DNA of 64,000 nucleotides, from the NCBI GenBank assembly GCA_963555755.3, contig OY820905.2:3040001-3104000 (forward strand). The letters are read 5' to 3'. The notes under the pieces are model-generated. The model saw nothing but the letters and a program-made list of their open reading frames with translations. It was not told the origin of the DNA and did no database searches. The first letter of the stretch is position 1; each line of letters starts with the position of its first letter. Both the position numbers and the translations under genes were made by a program. Below are positions 13,663-21,212 of the stretch, in pieces. The DNA comes from Nitrospirales bacterium (GTDB taxonomy: Bacteria; Nitrospirota; Nitrospiria; Nitrospirales; UBA8639).

Positions 13663-13926
13663 GGGGATGTTCAAAAAGGTGCGCTCAGCCAGATGGTCTC
13701 CAGGCTTCCCATCTGACTTTCCCAGGGGCTCTGCCCCTAGGACGGCCCAAACAGCAGGGCCTGTGACCCCTCGAAGGGGGAACACCCCCTTCGAACATCT
13801 CCCCCCGAGTGGTACTGACTACTCGGTGTGCAAGGCCGCAGGCGCTTTGGCGCGCGGAGCGTACTCATAGTACGTGAGCACGACAAAGGGCCGAGAACGC
13901 CGCTGACGCCCTTTTTCAACATTCCC
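13663..13926. mobile_element. MITE family A (TIR GGGAATGTTGAAAAAG-like) with an extra ~140-bp hairpin insert
   Basis: Imperfect TIRs; core CAAGGCCGCA...CGGAGCGTAC-GTACGTGAG...AACGCCGC shared with the other copies. Confidence 0.75.
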
Positions 13927-14179
13927 ATAATCAGAATCCTGAGTCCATTGGATTCAGGGCAAGGGTGCCCAGTACAACCCTAACATTATGATCAAAAGCT
14001 GTTCATGACACAATTGCTTTTCTCTGATGGGGGGGATCCTGTCGAGAAAGGGGGAAGAGAAGGGAAAGGGAGGAGAAGATACACTCAGGATTGGTGGCCA
14101 ACAGTTTGGGAGGTGTGGAATCGTGAGCCCCCGAACTTTGTATAGGCTCGGGGCCTCACAGACCCTGGGCAATGACTTA

Positions 14180-14325
14180 GGGGCCTGTTCAAAAATGTCC
14201 GTCCAGCAAGGCCGCAGGCCCGTTGGCGCGCGGAACGTACGCAGAGTACGTGAGCACGGCAACGGGCCGAAAACGCCGCTGGGACCCTTCGGAAAGACTC
14301 AGGGCATGTTTTTTCAACAGGCCCC
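14180..14325. mobile_element. MITE family A, TTA target duplication (right copy is the stop codon of the undA-like 3' fragment)
   Basis: GGGGCCTGTTCAAAAA...TTTTTCAACAGGCCCC; TTA on both sides. Confidence 0.82.
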
Positions 14326-14535
14326 TTATGCCACGTAAGCTGAACAGTGATCGACCGACAAGTCAATGGGGGAAAACTTGCGATAGCAGGCCTCCAGCGC
14401 GATATGAAAATATTCCATACTGCGTTTGGCGGCCTGGATCACTTTGGGTTGTTCGTGCTCGGAATGGGTCGTCTGAATGATGATCTCCAGGGCTTCCAAG
14501 GCATGCGTTTCATCATAGCGTGCATGATTTTTCAT
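14326..14535 (-). pseudogene. undA: 3' fragment of the interrupted UndA-like heme-oxygenase-like diiron enzyme
   Basis: MKNHARYDETHALEALEII continues AYAW from 20617-21212 in frame once the insertion and one TSD copy are removed. Confidence 0.85.
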
Positions 14536-15332
14536 GGATCATGCAGAATTTAGGGTTCTGGCAGCACAATACGATCAGGTGCACATAAATTTATGGCACT
14601 CCTCGTGGGTTATGTCGCCTCTCCTTTTGAGCGAATGGCGTCGTCTTGTATTGTTAGGTAGCTGCAGCATCTCATGCTGCCTCTTCCTGGCGTCATAGCC
14701 CCTTGGTCCGTGGGAAGAGGGCACGATACGATCGTGCAGCTAGTGCGCCTGTGAAGGCGTTTGATCAGGAGGGTGCAAGTCCCTCTCAGGCGAACGTTAC
14801 CAGCCTGAAGTCGACAGTGGTCACTGCGTTTCCGTGAGGAAGGGTGGAGAGCAATCTGAGACGAACGACCAGTCCGTAACGAAAGTGAACTCGATTCGGC
14901 CAAGCCTGTCGGGGAGGCTCCTAGCGATGTCCGAACCCTTGATCGCGCGACGGCAGATCCCTTCGACCTGAGAGTCTGCCCGGGGGATAGACGCGGCAAG
15001 TCACGGCGGTGACGTAACGTGGGAAAGCGACCGTGGCGAAATGGCAAGGTGGTGGTTGGAGATGGAATGGTCGGAAGGTCAAACGAGCTAAGCAGGGAGA
15101 TCTGTCGGGTGAAGGACGTGGACGACGTGTCGTGACCATTCGCAGTGGGGGACGCTGCGTGATCAATGGCCCAGGCCCCTCGGTGCCGTATCGCGTGCCG
15201 CAGGGGAACGAACGAAGCGATGCCGATGACGTTGGATGAAGCGGCTCGACAGAAGTCAGAGCTCTCATAATAGCTGGGAAGCCGTGCAGCATAACGCGGT
15301 GGAGCAAAGGGGAGCAGGAAGGTAGATGTGAA

Positions 15333-16191
15333 ATGACTAAACCGCCGACACGTCGAGCCTCGACCACGCGTCGAGATTACATCCCAGTCACAGTGCCGTT
15401 TTCGGCTACCCCGGCTGGGGAGCTTCCTGGGATCGACCAGTGGGCTCATCGAGCGGTTTGGACAGATCGCATGGTGGCGACACTGATGGCAGACAACGTG
15501 AGAGGAGGCAAATGGCACACGTTGATGGATAAGGTGTCTGGCAGCCTGAACCTGTCCTGCTCGGCCAAGAAGGTCCTGGGCAAGAACGGGGCTGCGGGCG
15601 TTGACCGGCAAACGTGTTCGGAGTTCGCCGAGCATGAGCGGGCGGAACTCGATCGGTTGCAAGCCGAACTGGGTGACGGAACCTATCGTCCGGCAGCGGT
15701 GCGGCGGCGGTGGATTCCCAAACCCGACAGGTCGGCGAAGCGCCCGTTGGGAATTCCGACCGTGCGGGATCGCGTCGTGCAAACGGCAGTGGTCCACGTG
15801 CTTGAGCCGATTATGGACGCCATGTTCCATGCGCGAAGCTGCGGCTGTCGCCACGGACGCGGGTGCCATGATGCCCTGCGGTGCGTCGAGGAATGGCTCG
15901 ACGCCGGGTATGTGTATGTTGTCGACGCGGATGTGCAGGAGTACTACGAGACGATTCCGAAAGATCGACTGGTGGCCAGAGTGCAACAGAAGATCTCGGA
16001 TCGCCGTGTGGTGGGCCTGGTGAAGAAGTGTCTGAACCAGGGGATTCTGGAAGAACTGCGGGAGTGGACGCCGGAAGCCGGTGGGCCGCAAGGCGCGGTG
16101 CTGTCTCCCATGCTGTCGAATGTCTATCTCAACCCCCTGGACCATCGGATGTCCGATCTCGGATTTCAGATGGTGCGCTACGCGGATGACT
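15333..16191 (+). pseudogene. ltrA: Outer intron RT/maturase, 5' part up to YADD
   Basis: GAAGVD, RPLGIPTVRDR, PQGAVLSP, RYADD; several degenerate motifs (SCGCR, QEYYETI, GGPQG). Confidence 0.85.
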
Positions 16192-18060
16192 GTGCGCCAC
16201 GAAGGCGCACAAAAGGACGTCAGTCCTTTGTGCAGCCATGCTGCACAAGAGATGAGGGGAGGCCCCTCGAAGTCGCTGTACAGGCGGAGGCTTCAAACCA
16301 CCCATGGCTGCTGCCTTTAAGAGAGGTGGTGGTGAGCGCAATGGGAAAAGGCAGGGCAAGACCCTGTCAGGTATGGACCGTCGAGTCGAACGTGAGTGAA
16401 CCGCTGAGGACGTGTCGAAAGCGTAGGGATGACGTCAAAACCGGGGGGGGATCGTTACTCCGGGAGGAATCTGGCGGGCACCTGGTTACTGGCCAGATGG
16501 CGTCCGGCATGAAGGCGGCGAGAAGGCGGTCCAGGCTCTTGTGGAGAACGTGGGAACCTGTCACCCCGATGCGAAGGGAGAAACGCAAGTGGAGGTCCCA
16601 CAAGCGTGAGAGTACCGAGGCGGGGTACAGGGGCGGAGCAACTCGTAGTAGTGAAGAAGGTTCTGTAATGGAGCTGGAGCGAAGGGGTTGCCTTATCGGG
16701 CTTGAGGGAAGAGAGCAACCAGCGATGGGAGGACTTTCGTGACTCAGGCCAAGCCATTTCCCATTACCCAACGTCAGGTGTGGGAAGCCTACAAACGAGT
16801 GAAAGCCAATCAGGGTGGGGCTGGGGTGGATGGCCAGACGGTGGCGGACTTTGAGCAGAGGTTGGACAACAACCTCTATAAGCTCTGGAACCGGATGGCC
16901 TCTGGGAGTTATCGGCCCCTGCCGGTCAAGCGGGTGGAGATTCCCAAGGCAGGCGGCGGCAGCCGTCCGTTGGGGATCCCGACCGTGGCAGACCGGATTG
17001 CGCAAACAGTGGTCAAACAGGCCCTGGAACCGGAAGTGGAAGCCCACTTTCACCCGGATTCCTATGGCTACCGACCGGGGAAATCAGCGCATCAAGCGAT
17101 TGGGCAGGCGCGCAGGCGGTGTTGGCGCTATGACTGGGTGGTGGACCTTGACATCAAAGGGTTCTTCGACACCATCGACCATGACCGGCTGCTGGCCATG
17201 GTGCGTCGGCATACCCAAGCTACGTGGGTGCTGCTCTATATCGAGCGATGGTTGAAAGCTCCGGAGCAAGTGTTGGACGGGACGGTGCGGGAGCGGACCC
17301 GAGGCACGCCGCAAGGGGGTGTCGTCAGTCCGTTGCTGGCGAACCTGTTTCTGCATTATGTCTTCGATGCGTGGATGAGGCGGTACTATCCGCACATCCC
17401 GTTTGAGCGGTATGCCGACGATGGGGTGTGTCACTGTCGCACCCGGAAACAGGCCGAACATCTGAAAGGGGCGTTAGCGCGGCGCTTTGCGGATTGGGGG
17501 CTTGAACTCCATTCGGAGAAGACCCAGATTGTATACTGCAAAGATGCCGATCGGCGTCTGGGGTATCCAATCACCGCCTTCGACTTCTTGGGCTACACGT
17601 TTCGCCCACGGCGGTCGAAGAACCGGTGGGGGAAATACTTCATCAACTTCAGTCCGGCCATCAGTAATAAGGCGGGGAAGGCGATCCGCCAGGTCGTGCG
17701 GAGCTGGCAGCTCCATCTGCGGAGCGATAAAGCGCTCGACGATCTGGCGCGGATGTTCAATGCGAAGATACGCGGGTGGGTGACCTATTACAGTGCCTTC
17801 TACCAATCGGCGTTGTACCGGTCCCTCCGGCACATCGATCGCAAACTTGTGCTGTGGGCCACTCGCAAGTTCAAGCGGCTGCGAGGCCACAAACGGCGAG
17901 CCGATCAGTGGTTGCGACGCATTGCGTGTCGGCAGCCCAATCTGTTTGCTCACTGGCGGTTGGTGTATGGACAGGCTAGATAAGAAGAGCCGGATGAGCG
18001 GAGACGTTCACGTCCGGTTCTGTGAGCGCCTCGAGGGGTGGTTCCTCGGGGCGACTCGAC
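16192..18060 (+). mobile_element. Inner group II intron, RmInt1-like (class D), 1869 bp
   Basis: 5' GTGCG at 16192; DV GAGCCGGATGAGCGGAGACGTTCACGTCCGGTTC; 3' GACTCGAC at 18060; removal restores YADD-FVILCR. Confidence 0.93.
16739..17983 (+). CDS. ltrA: Group II intron reverse transcriptase/maturase without endonuclease domain
   Basis: KPF...EAYKRVKAN.G.AGVDG, GTPQGGVVSP, RYADDG, FDFLG, LFAHW; GTG start after GGAGG. Confidence 0.95.
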   Translation: MTQAKPFPITQRQVWEAYKRVKANQGGAGVDGQTVADFEQRLDNNLYKLWNRMASGSYRPLPVKRVEIPKAGGGSRPLGIPTVADRIAQTVVKQALEPEVEAHFHPDSYGYRPGKSAHQAIGQARRRCWRYDWVVDLDIKGFFDTIDHDRLLAMVRRHTQATWVLLYIERWLKAPEQVLDGTVRERTRGTPQGGVVSPLLANLFLHYVFDAWMRRYYPHIPFERYADDGVCHCRTRKQAEHLKGALARRFADWGLELHSEKTQIVYCKDADRRLGYPITAFDFLGYTFRPRRSKNRWGKYFINFSPAISNKAGKAIRQVVRSWQLHLRSDKALDDLARMFNAKIRGWVTYYSAFYQSALYRSLRHIDRKLVLWATRKFKRLRGHKRRADQWLRRIACRQPNLFAHWRLVYGQAR

Positions 18061-18563
18061 TTGTCATCCTGTGTCGCACGCTGGAAGAAGCCGAAGCGGC
18101 GCTGGCCGAGGTGCGCCGGTGGGTGGAGGCCAATGGGCTGACACTGCATCCCGAGAAAACACACATCGTGGACTCGCGGGAGAAGAGCTTTTCGTTTCTG
18201 GGCTATTCGTTCCGAGGCCGGCTGCGGTTTCCACGAGCGAAGAGCCACCGAAAGTTCATCGCCCGCATCCGCGAGCTGACGCCGCAGAAATCGGGCGACT
18301 CGCTGGCGGTAATTCTCCACCGGCTCACTCGCTCGACGCAAGGGTGGTTCAACTACTTTCGGCACTGTTTTTGGAACATCTTCAAGGCCTACGATGGAAT
18401 GATCCGTCGGCGGTTGCGCCGGATGCTTCTGAAAAGGAACCGAAGGAATCGACAACGCCTCGCACGCAATCAACGGTGGCCGAACGCCTTCTTTGCGGAT
18501 CATGGGTTCACGAGCCTGAATGATGCCCATATTCGTTTCGTCCACTCCATAGGAACCTACTGA
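18061..18563 (+). pseudogene. ltrA: Outer intron RT/maturase, 3' part (RT5-7 and X/thumb)
   Basis: VILCR, GLTLHPEKT, FSFLGY, GWFNYF, RWPNAFF; spliced ORF is 453 aa. Confidence 0.88.
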
Positions 18564-18589
18564 CTGGAGAGCCGTATGCGGGAGAACTG

Positions 18590-20450
18590 CAAGCCGTTCA
18601 CTTAATCTGTTGACACAAACCAGCAAACAGACATAAACAGCGCTTGTTTGCTGGCTTTCTTGTTTTGGATCATGCAGAAAAAATCTTCCGCAACTTCTAC
18701 GCTGAAGCACCCTCGGATACCGCTCGAGTACGGTGGCTTCCAGATCAACCACTGCAAGTCTCCGGTCTGCTCGAACTACGGCGTTCCGCCAGAACAAACA
18801 TCGGTGCGTGGAAAAAATAGCTACACTCTGGATTCACGCAACCAAGGCATTTCATCCTGTATCTGCACGTCCTGCGGCGAAGGATTCCCTCTCAAGAGCA
18901 ACCTCGGCATCGCAGAAGAAGTCGAGCGCATGTCGGCCTACCTGTCGCCTCGTGAGATGGCGTTCTGCCGTAACGATGCCTGTACCAACCATACCGGTCA
19001 GGTGCCCGTAGGTACCGCTGGGGCATATGCCTCGTTCGGCAAGACCGCGATTGGCAGCCCCCGCTGGCGCGGTAGCGTCTGCGGTACGACGTTCTCACAG
19101 AACACCAAGGCCACCGCCCGGCAGCGGGAACATCACAAGAACAAGACCATTTTCAAACTGCTGGTCAACAAGCTGCCCGTGCGCCGAATCATCGAAGTCG
19201 CCGACATCCACCCCAAGACCTTCTACCACCGCCTCGACTTCCTCCATCGCCAGTGCCAATCATTTGCCGCCCACCGCGAGCACGCCCTATCCACCCTCCC
19301 CATTCGGCGACTGTACCTCGGCGTGGACCGGCAGGACGACCTTGTGAACTGGATGGTTCGCAAGGACAAGCGCAACATTCAGCTATCGGCCATTGCATCA
19401 GTGGACAACGAACACGGTTACGGCTTCGGTGTCCACCTTCACTTCGACCCTTCTCTGGACAGCGAAGCTGTCCAAGCCGAAGTCGAGAAGAGCGGCGACC
19501 TTGGCATGCCCTATCCGCATCGTCGCGTTGCACGTCTGTGGCTCAATGCAGACCATGAGCGAGCCAGTGCCAAATCCCTACGCACTTCGCGGCGCAAACC
19601 CGGACTGCCAACGCAGATCGATGAAGCCTATGCCGCAGCATTGATGCGTGACGATATCGAAAGCCCCGATGCGCCGTCGCCCGTAGAACGACTTCCTGAA
19701 TACGGGATGCCAACCCATGGCGAGTACACCATGTCTGGGCATTTTTTCTTCCTCAAACGCCTGCTGGGCAATGTCCAAAAGTGGCGCTTCTTTATCGACC
19801 AAGACCCTGGACTGCGAGCCGCGTGCCTATCGGCGTTCCACGACGAGATCCGAGGCCGCACGGCGGAGGCCTTCTCTGTTCGCATCACCAAAGATCTGAC
19901 GGTGGACGAAACGCGTCAAAAATACAACGAAGCGACGATGCTGTTCGTGCACGCAGAGCTCGCGCACCCAAAGATGAAGCCGCAGGAGGTCAAGTTGCTG
20001 CTGATCAAAGAGCGTCTGGCCTGTATGACGCCGCACGGGAAGTGGCAGGATCGGTGGCTTGACCATCCTTTCCCGACCATGAGCGAGCCAGAGAAGACAG
20101 TGGCCTCCCTCACCAATCTGGGCGACTACGACGAAGACCACAAAGCTTGGCTCTACAACAAAGCGAGCGTGCATGGTGTCGATTCGTTCTTCAACCAAGT
20201 GCGTCGACGGCTCTCCCTGCTGGAGCGTCCGATCCATTCCAAATCCAACAATGGTCGGATATGGAACGGATATTCTCCATATAACCCGGGTAATGTTGCA
20301 AAAGTACTCGACATCATGCGCACGGTGCATAACTACATCCTGACCGGCAAGGATGGCAAGACGCCAGCTGTGCGACTTGGATTGGCCCAAGCGCCGCTGG
20401 ACTACGAAGCCATTATTTATTTTGCATCAACAGATTAAGTGAACGGCTTG
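18590..20450. mobile_element. Unclassified IS, 1861 bp, perfect 24-bp TIR CAAGCCGTTCACTTAATCTGTTGA, 9-bp TSD GGAGAACTG, inserted in intron domain V
   Basis: TIRs at 18590-18613 and 20427-20450; TSD at 18581-18589 and 20451-20459 (an 11-bp TSD/23-bp TIR reading is equivalent). Confidence 0.92.
18672..20438 (+). CDS. Putative large transposase (zinc ribbons, HTH, probable DDE core)
   Basis: Sole long ORF filling the TIR-bounded element; CxxxxC/CxxC motifs, FGKTxxG, GVD...IDQD, C-terminal TPAVRLGL; stop lies inside the right TIR. Confidence 0.75.
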   Translation: MQKKSSATSTLKHPRIPLEYGGFQINHCKSPVCSNYGVPPEQTSVRGKNSYTLDSRNQGISSCICTSCGEGFPLKSNLGIAEEVERMSAYLSPREMAFCRNDACTNHTGQVPVGTAGAYASFGKTAIGSPRWRGSVCGTTFSQNTKATARQREHHKNKTIFKLLVNKLPVRRIIEVADIHPKTFYHRLDFLHRQCQSFAAHREHALSTLPIRRLYLGVDRQDDLVNWMVRKDKRNIQLSAIASVDNEHGYGFGVHLHFDPSLDSEAVQAEVEKSGDLGMPYPHRRVARLWLNADHERASAKSLRTSRRKPGLPTQIDEAYAAALMRDDIESPDAPSPVERLPEYGMPTHGEYTMSGHFFFLKRLLGNVQKWRFFIDQDPGLRAACLSAFHDEIRGRTAEAFSVRITKDLTVDETRQKYNEATMLFVHAELAHPKMKPQEVKLLLIKERLACMTPHGKWQDRWLDHPFPTMSEPEKTVASLTNLGDYDEDHKAWLYNKASVHGVDSFFNQVRRRLSLLERPIHSKSNNGRIWNGYSPYNPGNVAKVLDIMRTVHNYILTGKDGKTPAVRLGLAQAPLDYEAIIYFASTD

Positions 20451-20616
20451 GGAGAACTGCACGTACGGTTCGGAGGGAGGGGGAGCGCAACTCAATGCGC
20501 CCTCCCTACCCCTATCACAAGAAAGAAAGCTCACAGGAAGCAACGCCATGGCCAAGAAACTCCATGTGGCCAGAATTGGATGGCGGTAGGATAGAACCAT
20601 ATATTCTGTATGATCC

Positions 20617-21212
20617 TTTTTCATCCAGGCGTACGCGCGCTTTGTTAAATGGATCCCGTCCCGACCGTCATATTTGGGAAATCCTTCCAATACCGCACGG
20701 GCAATTCCTTGGGTGGTGCCCTCGATGGCATAGGTCATGGCACCCATGCTTTCCGCCAGGGATCCGCGCAAATTAATGGACCACATGTAATGCGTGAGGG
20801 CCTCCACTTCGGGAAGAACCGGGAAGTCATGCAGCTCTTCACGAGTGATACCAAAGGCGTCGGTCATGTCCATCCACTGCTTCGCATGCCATTTTTCCAC
20901 CCGAACGTTGTCGATGAGAATCTCCCGGGCAAAGGCCTCCTGGGCTTTCGCAATATTCAAGGCAATCCATTGAGGAAAGGTTTCGATGAAGGGATACAGT
21001 TGCATCAACCACCCGCGCATTTGTTCAAGGGACAGGGTCCCCTGGGATGTTTCTTTCACCAGGGGGCAATTGAAGATACGTTGCTGATAGGGGTCCGTTT
21101 CATTGTTCAGATGAACAATCCATGGCGGATGTGGGGAAAATGATGGCCGTTTGCTCCCAGACACCTCGGTGAACCGGCTGGCTTGATGGGGAAAGGTCAG
21201 TAGCTGTGACAT
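20617..21212 (-). pseudogene. undA: 5' fragment of the UndA-like (TenA/HO-like) diiron fatty-acid decarboxylase
   Basis: NVRVEKWHA and YAIEG match UndA-type NIRVELNHA/YAIEG; GGAGG RBS; reconstructed protein is 265 aa. Confidence 0.82.

Follow-up and report, generated by a model that had tools for sequence, protein, structure and literature searches.

We describe an insertion sequence (IS) that has entered the catalytic domain V of a group II intron in a Nitrospirales bacterium, and whose relatives recur at the same 9-bp site in many genomes. The IS belongs to a nested stack of mobile elements in a broken gene, contained in a 64,000 nt stretch of DNA (hereafter the window; positions 3,040,001 to 3,104,000 of contig OY820905.2, assembly GCA_963555755.3). 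The stack is confirmed, with every junction exact, and nesting of this type is an ordinary, known kind of event. From comparison of sequences we consider it probable that the stack grew by successive, independent, site-directed insertions, and that an unnamed IS family with a predicted DDE transposase uses one site in domain V, likely through a transposase dimer that reads symmetric DNA. Papers are cited by PubMed Central number, from the portions of their text accessible to us.

An insertion sequence inside intron domain V

The IS and the intron halves that it separates are located as follows in the window.

18569..18589, forward strand: 5' half of domain V of the outer intron, a 12-nt arm plus the 9-bp target site duplication (TSD) GGAGAACTG at 18581-18589 (from the fold)
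18590..20450, forward strand: IS of 1861 bp with 30-bp inverted repeats (IRs) at 18590-18619 and 20421-20450, 93% complementary (from IRs, TSD and copies)
18672..20438, forward strand: transposase of 588 aa with an N-terminal Cys/zinc-finger region, a helix-turn-helix (HTH) and an RNase H/DDE core; candidate catalytic residues D219, D376 and E518 (from alignment and predicted fold)
20451..20515, forward strand: second TSD copy (20451-20459), 3' arm of domain V (20460-20471) and domain VI (from the fold)

An initial annotation of the window, made from its letters alone, had already placed the IS at 18590-20450 with a 9-bp TSD. These limits hold, giving an element of 1861 nt between copies of GGAGAACTG at 18581-18589 and 20451-20459; the junctions were read exactly, and it was overlooked that the site they enclose is the loop of domain V. 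As the IS splits the ribozyme core, we infer that this copy of the outer intron has lost both splicing and mobility.

The same arrangement recurs elsewhere in the genome. All eight ends of the four IS copies abut domain V halves, in the same 9-bp register and in both orientations. The copies sit in introns of two or more families, and that of the outer intron has been entered both in sense (the window) and in antisense (C1:1024325). Two of the copies have non-matching flanks, which is consistent with later recombination.

Beyond this genome, 66 IS loci were fetched from other genomes and metagenomes and their IRs located; 55 had a scorable end and 11 had none. Ends were scored with a matrix trained on five intact domain V sequences of the Nitrospirales genome, and a match was called above the 99.9th percentile of 200,000 random 21-mers. 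A domain V half was matched by 49 of the 81 scored ends (42 of 74 unique flanks), at 37 of the 55 loci. These ends lay in sense in 26 cases and in antisense in 23; among their flanks, the 5' halves fell into 18 clusters and the 3' halves into 10. Among close-clade loci with an exact 9-bp TSD, 8 of 12 had domain V on both sides. A reverse transcriptase (RT) match was present on the expected side and strand at eight loci, and an Rfam match to intron domains D1-D4 at 5 of 20 submitted loci; at four of these five the targeted intron seems to lack an open reading frame (ORF) (L002, L008, L009 and L040).

A quick transposase tree of 37 rows, from which loci with fewer than 400 aligned residues were excluded, intermixed domain V sites with other sites, requiring 11 changes; an equally low number was obtained in 139 of 500 shuffles. 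Identical transposases occurred at both kinds of site (L007 and L008). The possibility that one founder insertion had spread together with a single intron was rejected on account of the many target clusters, the two orientations and the mixed tree. In a literature search that covered mainly the main text of open-access papers, no IS targeting domain V was found, nor any IS described as directed at a ribozyme's active site. The presence of an IS inside an intron ORF has already been reported (PMC2882425).

The element has the properties of a DDE-type IS, namely 30-bp IRs, a 9-bp TSD, four copies in the genome and an exact 9-bp TSD at 13 loci elsewhere. D219, D376 and E518 are invariant in 80 aligned transposase sequences, and we infer that they are catalytic. 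The predicted structure of the transposase (pLDDT 88) has an RNase H/DDE fold matching the ISCth4, Tn5 and Hermes transposases; the best match was ISCth4 (Z 12.5, root mean square deviation 3.7, 238 aligned residues, 11% identity), followed by Tn5 (Z 10.4). No Pfam family was found for the transposase, and none of its 80 homologues matched the Pfam families of IS1 (DDE_Tnp_IS1) or Mutator. The IS1 profile NF033558 scored 25.4 bits against a cut-off of 100 (E 1e-5), across residues 131-204 only, and one homologue is labelled 'IS1 family' by NCBI. The Atlas clusters for the transposase are unnamed, the nearest named ones, IS1/IS1595-like at 0.88, serving as a lead only. A sequence search of solved structures returned zinc-finger matches only.

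With the IS256/Mutator-like elements (ISCth4; the p-MULT families, PMC3942029) the transposase appears to share an RNase H/DDE fold with a helical insertion, and with the IS1 family it shares the zinc-finger/HTH stretch detected by NF033558. It differs from both in its 588 aa and long Cys-rich N-terminus, and the accessible text of PMC3942029 makes no mention of domain V as a p-MULT target.

The 661 homologues of the transposase include a close clade with identities of 70-90% and, beyond it, a broader group at about 50%. Within the phylum, 5 of 400 other genomes carry the IS, all as distant relatives (44-50%), and the hosts named in the records of IS loci include Alpha-, Beta- and Gammaproteobacteria and Lentisphaeria. 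Matches at the level of 22% identity include many Enterococcus and Staphylococcus plasmids; one such homologue (L134; NZ_KX149097.1, 2809-5330) lies directly beside dfrG, and the literature search found no family name for this dfrG-linked relative. The tip of the IS IR (AAGCCGT) resembles a domain V arm, which may be a chance likeness.

Target choice by sequence or by structure

The sites outside introns have a sequence preference of their own. At the 28 unique ends that did not match domain V (L013, L015 and L061 were omitted as distant or doubtful), C was found at -9 in 23, C at -8 in 17 and G at -7 in 15, with a GG...CC core. The non-intron sites share a symmetric motif consisting of CCG, 6 nt, a 9-bp core SGNWWWNCS, 6 nt and CGG. 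In its double-stranded DNA form, the 33-nt domain V divides into 12+9+12, its lower helix being symmetric about the duplicated 9 bp, so that the motif fits both arms; a 34-nt domain V falls out of register.

A matrix made from 26 non-domain-V ends, after two more domain-V-like ends had been dropped, was used to rank 4.6 million genome positions. Two intact domain V sequences were ranked 1st and 6th, compared with 223,535th or worse by five matrices made from random flanks. The same matrix ranked a 33-nt domain V that is never hit, although present in 15 copies, 1717th, and the 34-nt domain V of the inner intron 19,348th; a short-loop domain V of another family was ranked 34th, yet is without the IS. 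The ranking points to recognition of a symmetric DNA sequence. We envisage a transposase dimer that would read a two-fold symmetric site, with the 33-nt domain V of IIE/IIF-type introns fitting both of its arms.

The main rival explanation is that the IS reads the shape of an extruded hairpin or cruciform and not its sequence, domain V being a common hairpin of the right size. Folding of the eight reconstructed domain V sites gave the expected hairpin in every case, and IS1272/TnSha1 is described as targeting hairpins without a sequence consensus (PMC4923244). A de novo search of 14 distant loci located IRs, and so the target, at five; three of these relatives (L013, L067 and L074) are placed on the apex, or close to it, of terminator-like hairpins whose folding surpasses that of almost every local control, and two (L071 and L072) had no strong hairpin. 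However, in domain V the centre of the TSD coincides with the dyad of the lower helix (12+9+12), not with the loop. Domain V DNA is not unusually stable, as 2-32% of local controls fold equally well, and L031 carries the left-arm sequence and no hairpin. Moreover, none of the 15 copies of the 33-nt domain V ranked 1717th carries the IS. We consider recognition of shape unlikely as the explanation for the domain V sites.

Several observations count against recognition of a symmetric sequence in domain V. No domain V end was found in 18 of the 55 scorable loci, and the domain V scoring matrix was built from only five sequences, all from this genome. Among the positive loci, L031 has a 5' half only, and L047 is borderline; many of the two-ended loci without a TSD are probably chimeras of collapsed repeats. 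The matrix from non-domain-V ends holds only ~7 bits. With the 18 least domain-V-like flanks the two domain V ranks fell to 386 and 1348, and with 14 such flanks to 11,066 and 51,359, while bootstrap ranks ranged from 2 to 645. Because a motif of ~7 bits leaves the two-thirds hit rate unexplained by the sequence model alone, extra specificity or selection is needed. Finally, the hairpins of L013, L067 and L074 (45-50% identity) are strong and show little of the motif, which favours the structural reading for those relatives.

Selection is the basis of a second alternative, in which the IS has a weak preference and its domain V insertions are enriched later, being harmless or of benefit to the host because a mobile intron is disabled. 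The weakness of the non-intron motif, with hundreds to thousands of similar sites in the genome, agrees with this, and selection against intron mobility has been discussed (PMC2882425). Neutral survival, though, would scatter insertions over 2-kb introns and other dispensable DNA, and not confine them to one 9-bp register in both orientations; in addition, the motif of the non-intron sites independently indicates domain V. As an account of the pattern this is very unlikely, and selection may add to the enrichment at domain V. A third proposal, that the transposase is guided by the intron ribonucleoprotein, by the RT, or by a product of retrohoming (RNA/DNA hybrid or cDNA), would account for specificity beyond the 7-bit motif. 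It conflicts with the four apparently ORF-less introns among the targets, with the equal use of both orientations and with the motif common to non-intron sites, and seems to us extremely improbable.

Recognition of a symmetric sequence has parallels among known elements. The ISs that target repetitive extragenic palindromes (REPs), IS1397, ISKpn1, ISPsy8, ISRm22 and ISPpu9/10, likewise insert at one set position in a repeat that is palindromic and dispensable; some enter at the symmetry axis, and their specificity is attributed to the transposase (PMC1525189). Here, by contrast, the target is the catalytic domain V, the duplication is of 9 bp, and the transposase falls outside those families in Pfam and NCBIfam. 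IS1272/TnSha1, of the IS1182 family, shares palindromic targets, both orientations and reuse of one site, and resembles the situation of L013, L067 and L074; in the accessible text IS1272 deletes part of its target and has no consensus (PMC4923244), whereas this IS makes a clean 9-bp duplication at a symmetric consensus.

The layers of the stack and their history

The remaining layers of the stack, and the gene that they interrupt, are as follows.

14326..14535, reverse strand: host gene, 3' part (codons 197-265 and stop, including one TSD copy; from excision and homologue comparison)
14528..14535: left TSD TTTTTCAT, exact 8-bp duplication
14536..14742, forward strand: left 207 bp of the 308-bp MITE (miniature inverted-repeat transposable element), with terminal inverted repeat (TIR) at 14536-14559; TIRs like those of the ISL3/ISAon1-family IS at C1:3186451-3187876
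14658..14742, forward strand: GTAG...CTA/C REP doublet (REPIN) in the MITE, with inverted REP hairpins at 14664-14680 and 14721-14737 and its last base at 20516 (from genome copies and fold)
14743..20515, forward strand: outer group II intron of IIE/IIF type with an endonuclease-less RT, 5 nt 3' of the REP hairpin (from copies, fold and profiles)
15333..18563, forward strand: RT/maturase ORF of the outer intron, 453 aa, split at RYADD/FV (15333-16191 plus 18061-18563; from in-silico excision and profiles)
16192..18060, forward strand: inner group II intron, RmInt1-like (~70% DNA identity), with an intact 414-aa RT at 16739-17983 (from copies and profiles)
20516..20616, forward strand: right 101 bp of the MITE, with TIR at 20593-20616 (from copy comparison)
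20617..20624: right TSD TTTTTCAT, exact 8-bp duplication
20625..21212, reverse strand: host gene, 5' part (codons 1-196), TenA/PqqC/CADD-like (heme-oxygenase-like; Pfam TENA_THI-4 E 6e-17, Haem_oxygenas_2)

The initial annotation had described four nested levels, from host gene to inner intron and IS. All of these layers are real, and the REPIN that lies within the MITE, which it overlooked, adds one more. The 8-bp TSD that it placed around 14536-20616 proved exact; the 24-bp TIRs are present at both ends but match at only 21 of 24 positions. The proposed limits of the outer intron (GTGCG...CCTAT, 2034 nt without inserts) and inner intron (GTGCG...CGAC, 1869 nt) also hold, and in-silico excision of all layers yields, as predicted, an open 265-aa ORF (...AYAW-MKNHARYDETH...). 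Excision of the inner intron alone opens the 453-aa RT of the outer intron (RYADD/FVIL).

Each layer is present separately elsewhere in the genome. The 3' junction of the inner intron is crossed by one contig (17985-18394) assembled from another study's RNA library, and none of the listed reads or contigs bridges the whole stack. Misassembly is unlikely, given the exact TSDs and the separate copies of every layer, although an outside contig bridges only one junction. At window positions 15526, 15841, 15847, 16084 and 18134, and at four IS positions, public contigs from two runs carry only another base; several of these discordant bases alter conserved RT residues and may be assembly errors or strain differences. 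A promoter/terminator scan gave a result at chance level.

An intact homologue of the host gene (P0121), equal in length to the restored ORF and with four residues different by eye, supplied the uninterrupted gene that the initial annotation had proposed to look for; a tblastn search of the genome found no second copy. Named homologues are from Nitrospirae. The gene is lost regardless of the state of the introns, since the MITE is not removed by splicing and each intron lies in antisense relative to the gene. Right after its stop codon lie two 84-nt palindromic repeats, 87% alike (13830-13913 and 14206-14289, within positions 13663-14330), accompanied by 17-bp inverted ends at 14179-14195 and 14310-14326. 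Further along, the window holds an ordinary rRNA operon (52184-57427; 16S, two tRNAs, 23S and 5S).

Group IIC introns have a short domain V with a CGC triad. The domain V of the outer intron, as folded, is 33 nt long with an AGC triad and a 5-nt loop, and so lies outside group IIC; a loop of 5 nt is a mark of IIE/IIF introns (PMC3753933). An intact copy scored 56.9 bits with RF00029 and was above the cut-off of TIGR04416. In the Rfam scan the outer intron of the window was unmatched, and the intact copy had only a sub-threshold D1-D4-4 match. The conserved stretch GGTGGTTGG is a candidate exon-binding site 1 (EBS1) only, and the whole-domain fold was uninformative (z 0.27). No match to the outer-intron RT was found among viral contigs. 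Across the genome ~35 matches to group II RTs were counted, and intact copies of domain V number at least 36.

The genome contains four copies and one fragment of the outer intron; an intact copy occupies C1:4584900-4586933. All full copies begin one base inside the REP tag (CTA/C or CGA/C), 5 nt past the hairpin. The window copy uses one REP arm, two copies use the other in the opposite direction, and one is a chimera of both; as MITE copies were entered at two different arms, at least two separate homing events took place. In a genome of the same genus (L111), a REPIN precedes the intron's 5' end and no MITE match lies farther out, so that the real landing pad is the REPIN. Relatives of the intron lie 0-5 nt 3' of a hairpin in the four genomes with a readable 5' exon: a REPIN in G249, a CGTC-like REP at TGA/C in G407 (family label by eye), domain VI of another intron at TTA/C in G200, and in G483 a hairpin that ends at the junction, near an N gap. 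Neither hairpin nor /C targeting was seen in G343, where the 3' exon begins with G, or in three Burkholderiaceae relatives (48%), in which no 5' end was recognised and the 3' exon begins with A.

IIC introns insert after terminators or attC hairpins (PMC4424553, PMC8643678), hairpin-directed insertion after attC-like structures has been suggested for class E introns (PMC7923331), and 2 of 9 Pseudomonas putida introns are listed in REPs (PMC1525189). The outer intron and its four relatives share with the hairpin-directed IIC and class E introns entry 0-5 nt 3' of a DNA hairpin. They differ from IIC introns in that the outer intron has the AGC triad and 5-nt loop of the IIE/IIF type and that REP ends are targeted (GTAG here, CGTC-like in G407), one base inside the tag. 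Judged from these junctions, REP- or hairpin-directed insertion by a non-IIC intron appears to be a modest variant, seen in few genomes.

The inner intron is ~70% identical to rhizobial ltrA introns and is of the RmInt1-like kind that homes to YADD codons; RmInt1 is an intron that we take to be of class D. Its three identical genome copies each lie directly after the YADD codons of a different RT gene (3/3), and its RT has RVT_1 and GIIM only, with no endonuclease domain. A candidate EBS1, GATCGT, lies in a loop at 16450-16455 and could pair with the inner-intron exons; a public contig diverges there to AGTCGT, which could pair with GACGACT/GATGACT exons. The twintron introns M.a.I5, UA.I3, P.l.I2 and B.th.I3 are known to home to YADD codons (PMC2504315, PMC4424553). 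Like them, the 1.87-kb, endonuclease-less inner intron inserts after the RYADD codons of other RT genes, and against the accessible descriptions we found no difference in behaviour.

The MITE is of ISL3/ISAon1 type, with an 8-bp TSD, no transposase of its own, and TIRs shared with an IS (C1:3186451-3187876) that matches PF01610 (E 7e-46), lies above the cut-off of NF049917 and is frameshifted in the assembly. Going by those shared ends, a transposase of this family would have mobilised it. An exact 8-bp TSD flanks 15 of the 22 MITE copies examined, and two more are off by one base. MITE positions 123-208 form a head-to-head GTAG REP dimer. Free REPIN copies flank a RAYT-like (REP-associated tyrosine transposase) gene at C1:3807059, and likewise in G485; this ORF scores 55 bits on NF047646 (cut-off 80) and is truncated in the assembly. 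GTAG tag, hairpin, inverted dimer and adjacent RAYT-like gene together mark the element as a GTAG REPIN. MITE matches of any kind occurred in 7 of 60 relatives, as the REP segment alone in several and as the whole MITE in G249. The accessible text on MITE and REPIN/RAYT systems (PMC3733652) describes the same TIR-bounded non-coding elements, 8-bp TSDs and head-to-head GTAG REP dimers near a RAYT-like gene; the difference is that here the REPIN lies inside the MITE, multiplying intron targets in this genome and in G249.

Other arrangements of the MITE were also seen. A further group II intron family (three copies: C1:3543877, 3024663 and 4119903) lies inside a MITE-type terminal repeat, two copies at ...CCATATATTCTG/TATGATCC and the third with another 3' flank, so that two or more intron families use the MITE, at sites that differ. 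At C1:3614067-3616200 (L089) a MITE copy breaks off at position 158, and after it comes another group II intron, whose domain V is short; no right MITE half was found downstream of this intron. In a rearranged cluster (C1:1006000-1030000; L086 and L087), halves of one MITE copy with the same 8-bp flank are 12 kb apart. The cluster includes an outer-intron copy whose domain V carries the IS in its loop and another intron at its base; this IS copy contains a 742-bp element (five copies). Other MITE families, of 328 and 641 bp, carry the same terminal repeat, and two MITE copies lie inside ISL3-type transposase genes. A tandem array of ~45 GTAG-tagged hairpins, with a period of roughly 71 bp, occupies C1:1338500-1341850. 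A 14-nt repeat common to the MITE TIR and the transposase start may be due to chance.

The initial annotation had offered two roles for the MITE, as a landing pad or as a vehicle able to move the 6.08-kb stack as one unit. The first is supported by 16 intron-free, near-full-length copies in the genome, besides several interrupted ones, and by the separate homing at two REP arms. Joint carriage into the host gene of the whole stack, or of the MITE together with the outer intron, would agree with the intact TIRs and TSD around the stack, with arm-B MITE-plus-intron units that have different TSDs (C1:4587056, 1022143), and with the presence of a transposase with similar TIRs, frameshifted as assembled. 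Such units answer in part the search for element-plus-intron copies at other loci, but the stack occurs only once in the genome, where no other full MITE has an arm-A insertion. Moreover, empty MITEs with intact target sites are common, and in relatives the intron uses free REPINs and other hairpins. Comparison of single-nucleotide differences was weak here, as several repeat positions read differently in public contigs and in the assembly. The vehicle is unsupported for the whole stack and may or may not apply to the smaller unit of MITE and outer intron; as an account of the entry into the host gene we regard it as quite unlikely.

In the order of events that we favour, an ISL3-type MITE with its REPIN would first have entered the host gene, and the outer intron would then have reverse-spliced just 3' of a REP hairpin. 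Subsequently, in either order, the inner intron would have homed into the YADD codons of the outer RT and the IS would have entered domain V. The inner intron and the IS appear to remain intact within the stack.

A possible new family and its significance

ISs that find a safe harbour by site-specific insertion into other selfish elements are already known. The literature also describes twintrons, YADD homing, and ISs that target REPs or hairpins; by the papers covered, the IS that targets domain V would be a new variant, and the family itself is possibly new. We tentatively suggest, as a possibility somewhat short of an even chance, that this is a new family of DDE ISs, judged against Pfam and NCBIfam, in which one clade evolved a dedicated use of IIE/IIF domain V, killing ribozyme retroelements across several phyla, from ancestors that targeted terminator hairpins.

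A second lead is provided by the outer intron, as a case of hairpin- or REP-directed insertion by a non-IIC intron. If the preference for domain V is built into the transposase, the IS family would be a natural check on the spread of group II introns, and one reason for the existence of broken introns that are unseen by Rfam. The terminator hairpins of its relatives would make the family a clean test of sequence against structure in target recognition. A compact, single-protein transposase with a long, rare and symmetric target would also be useful for the study of target choice by DDE enzymes, and possibly as an integration tool.

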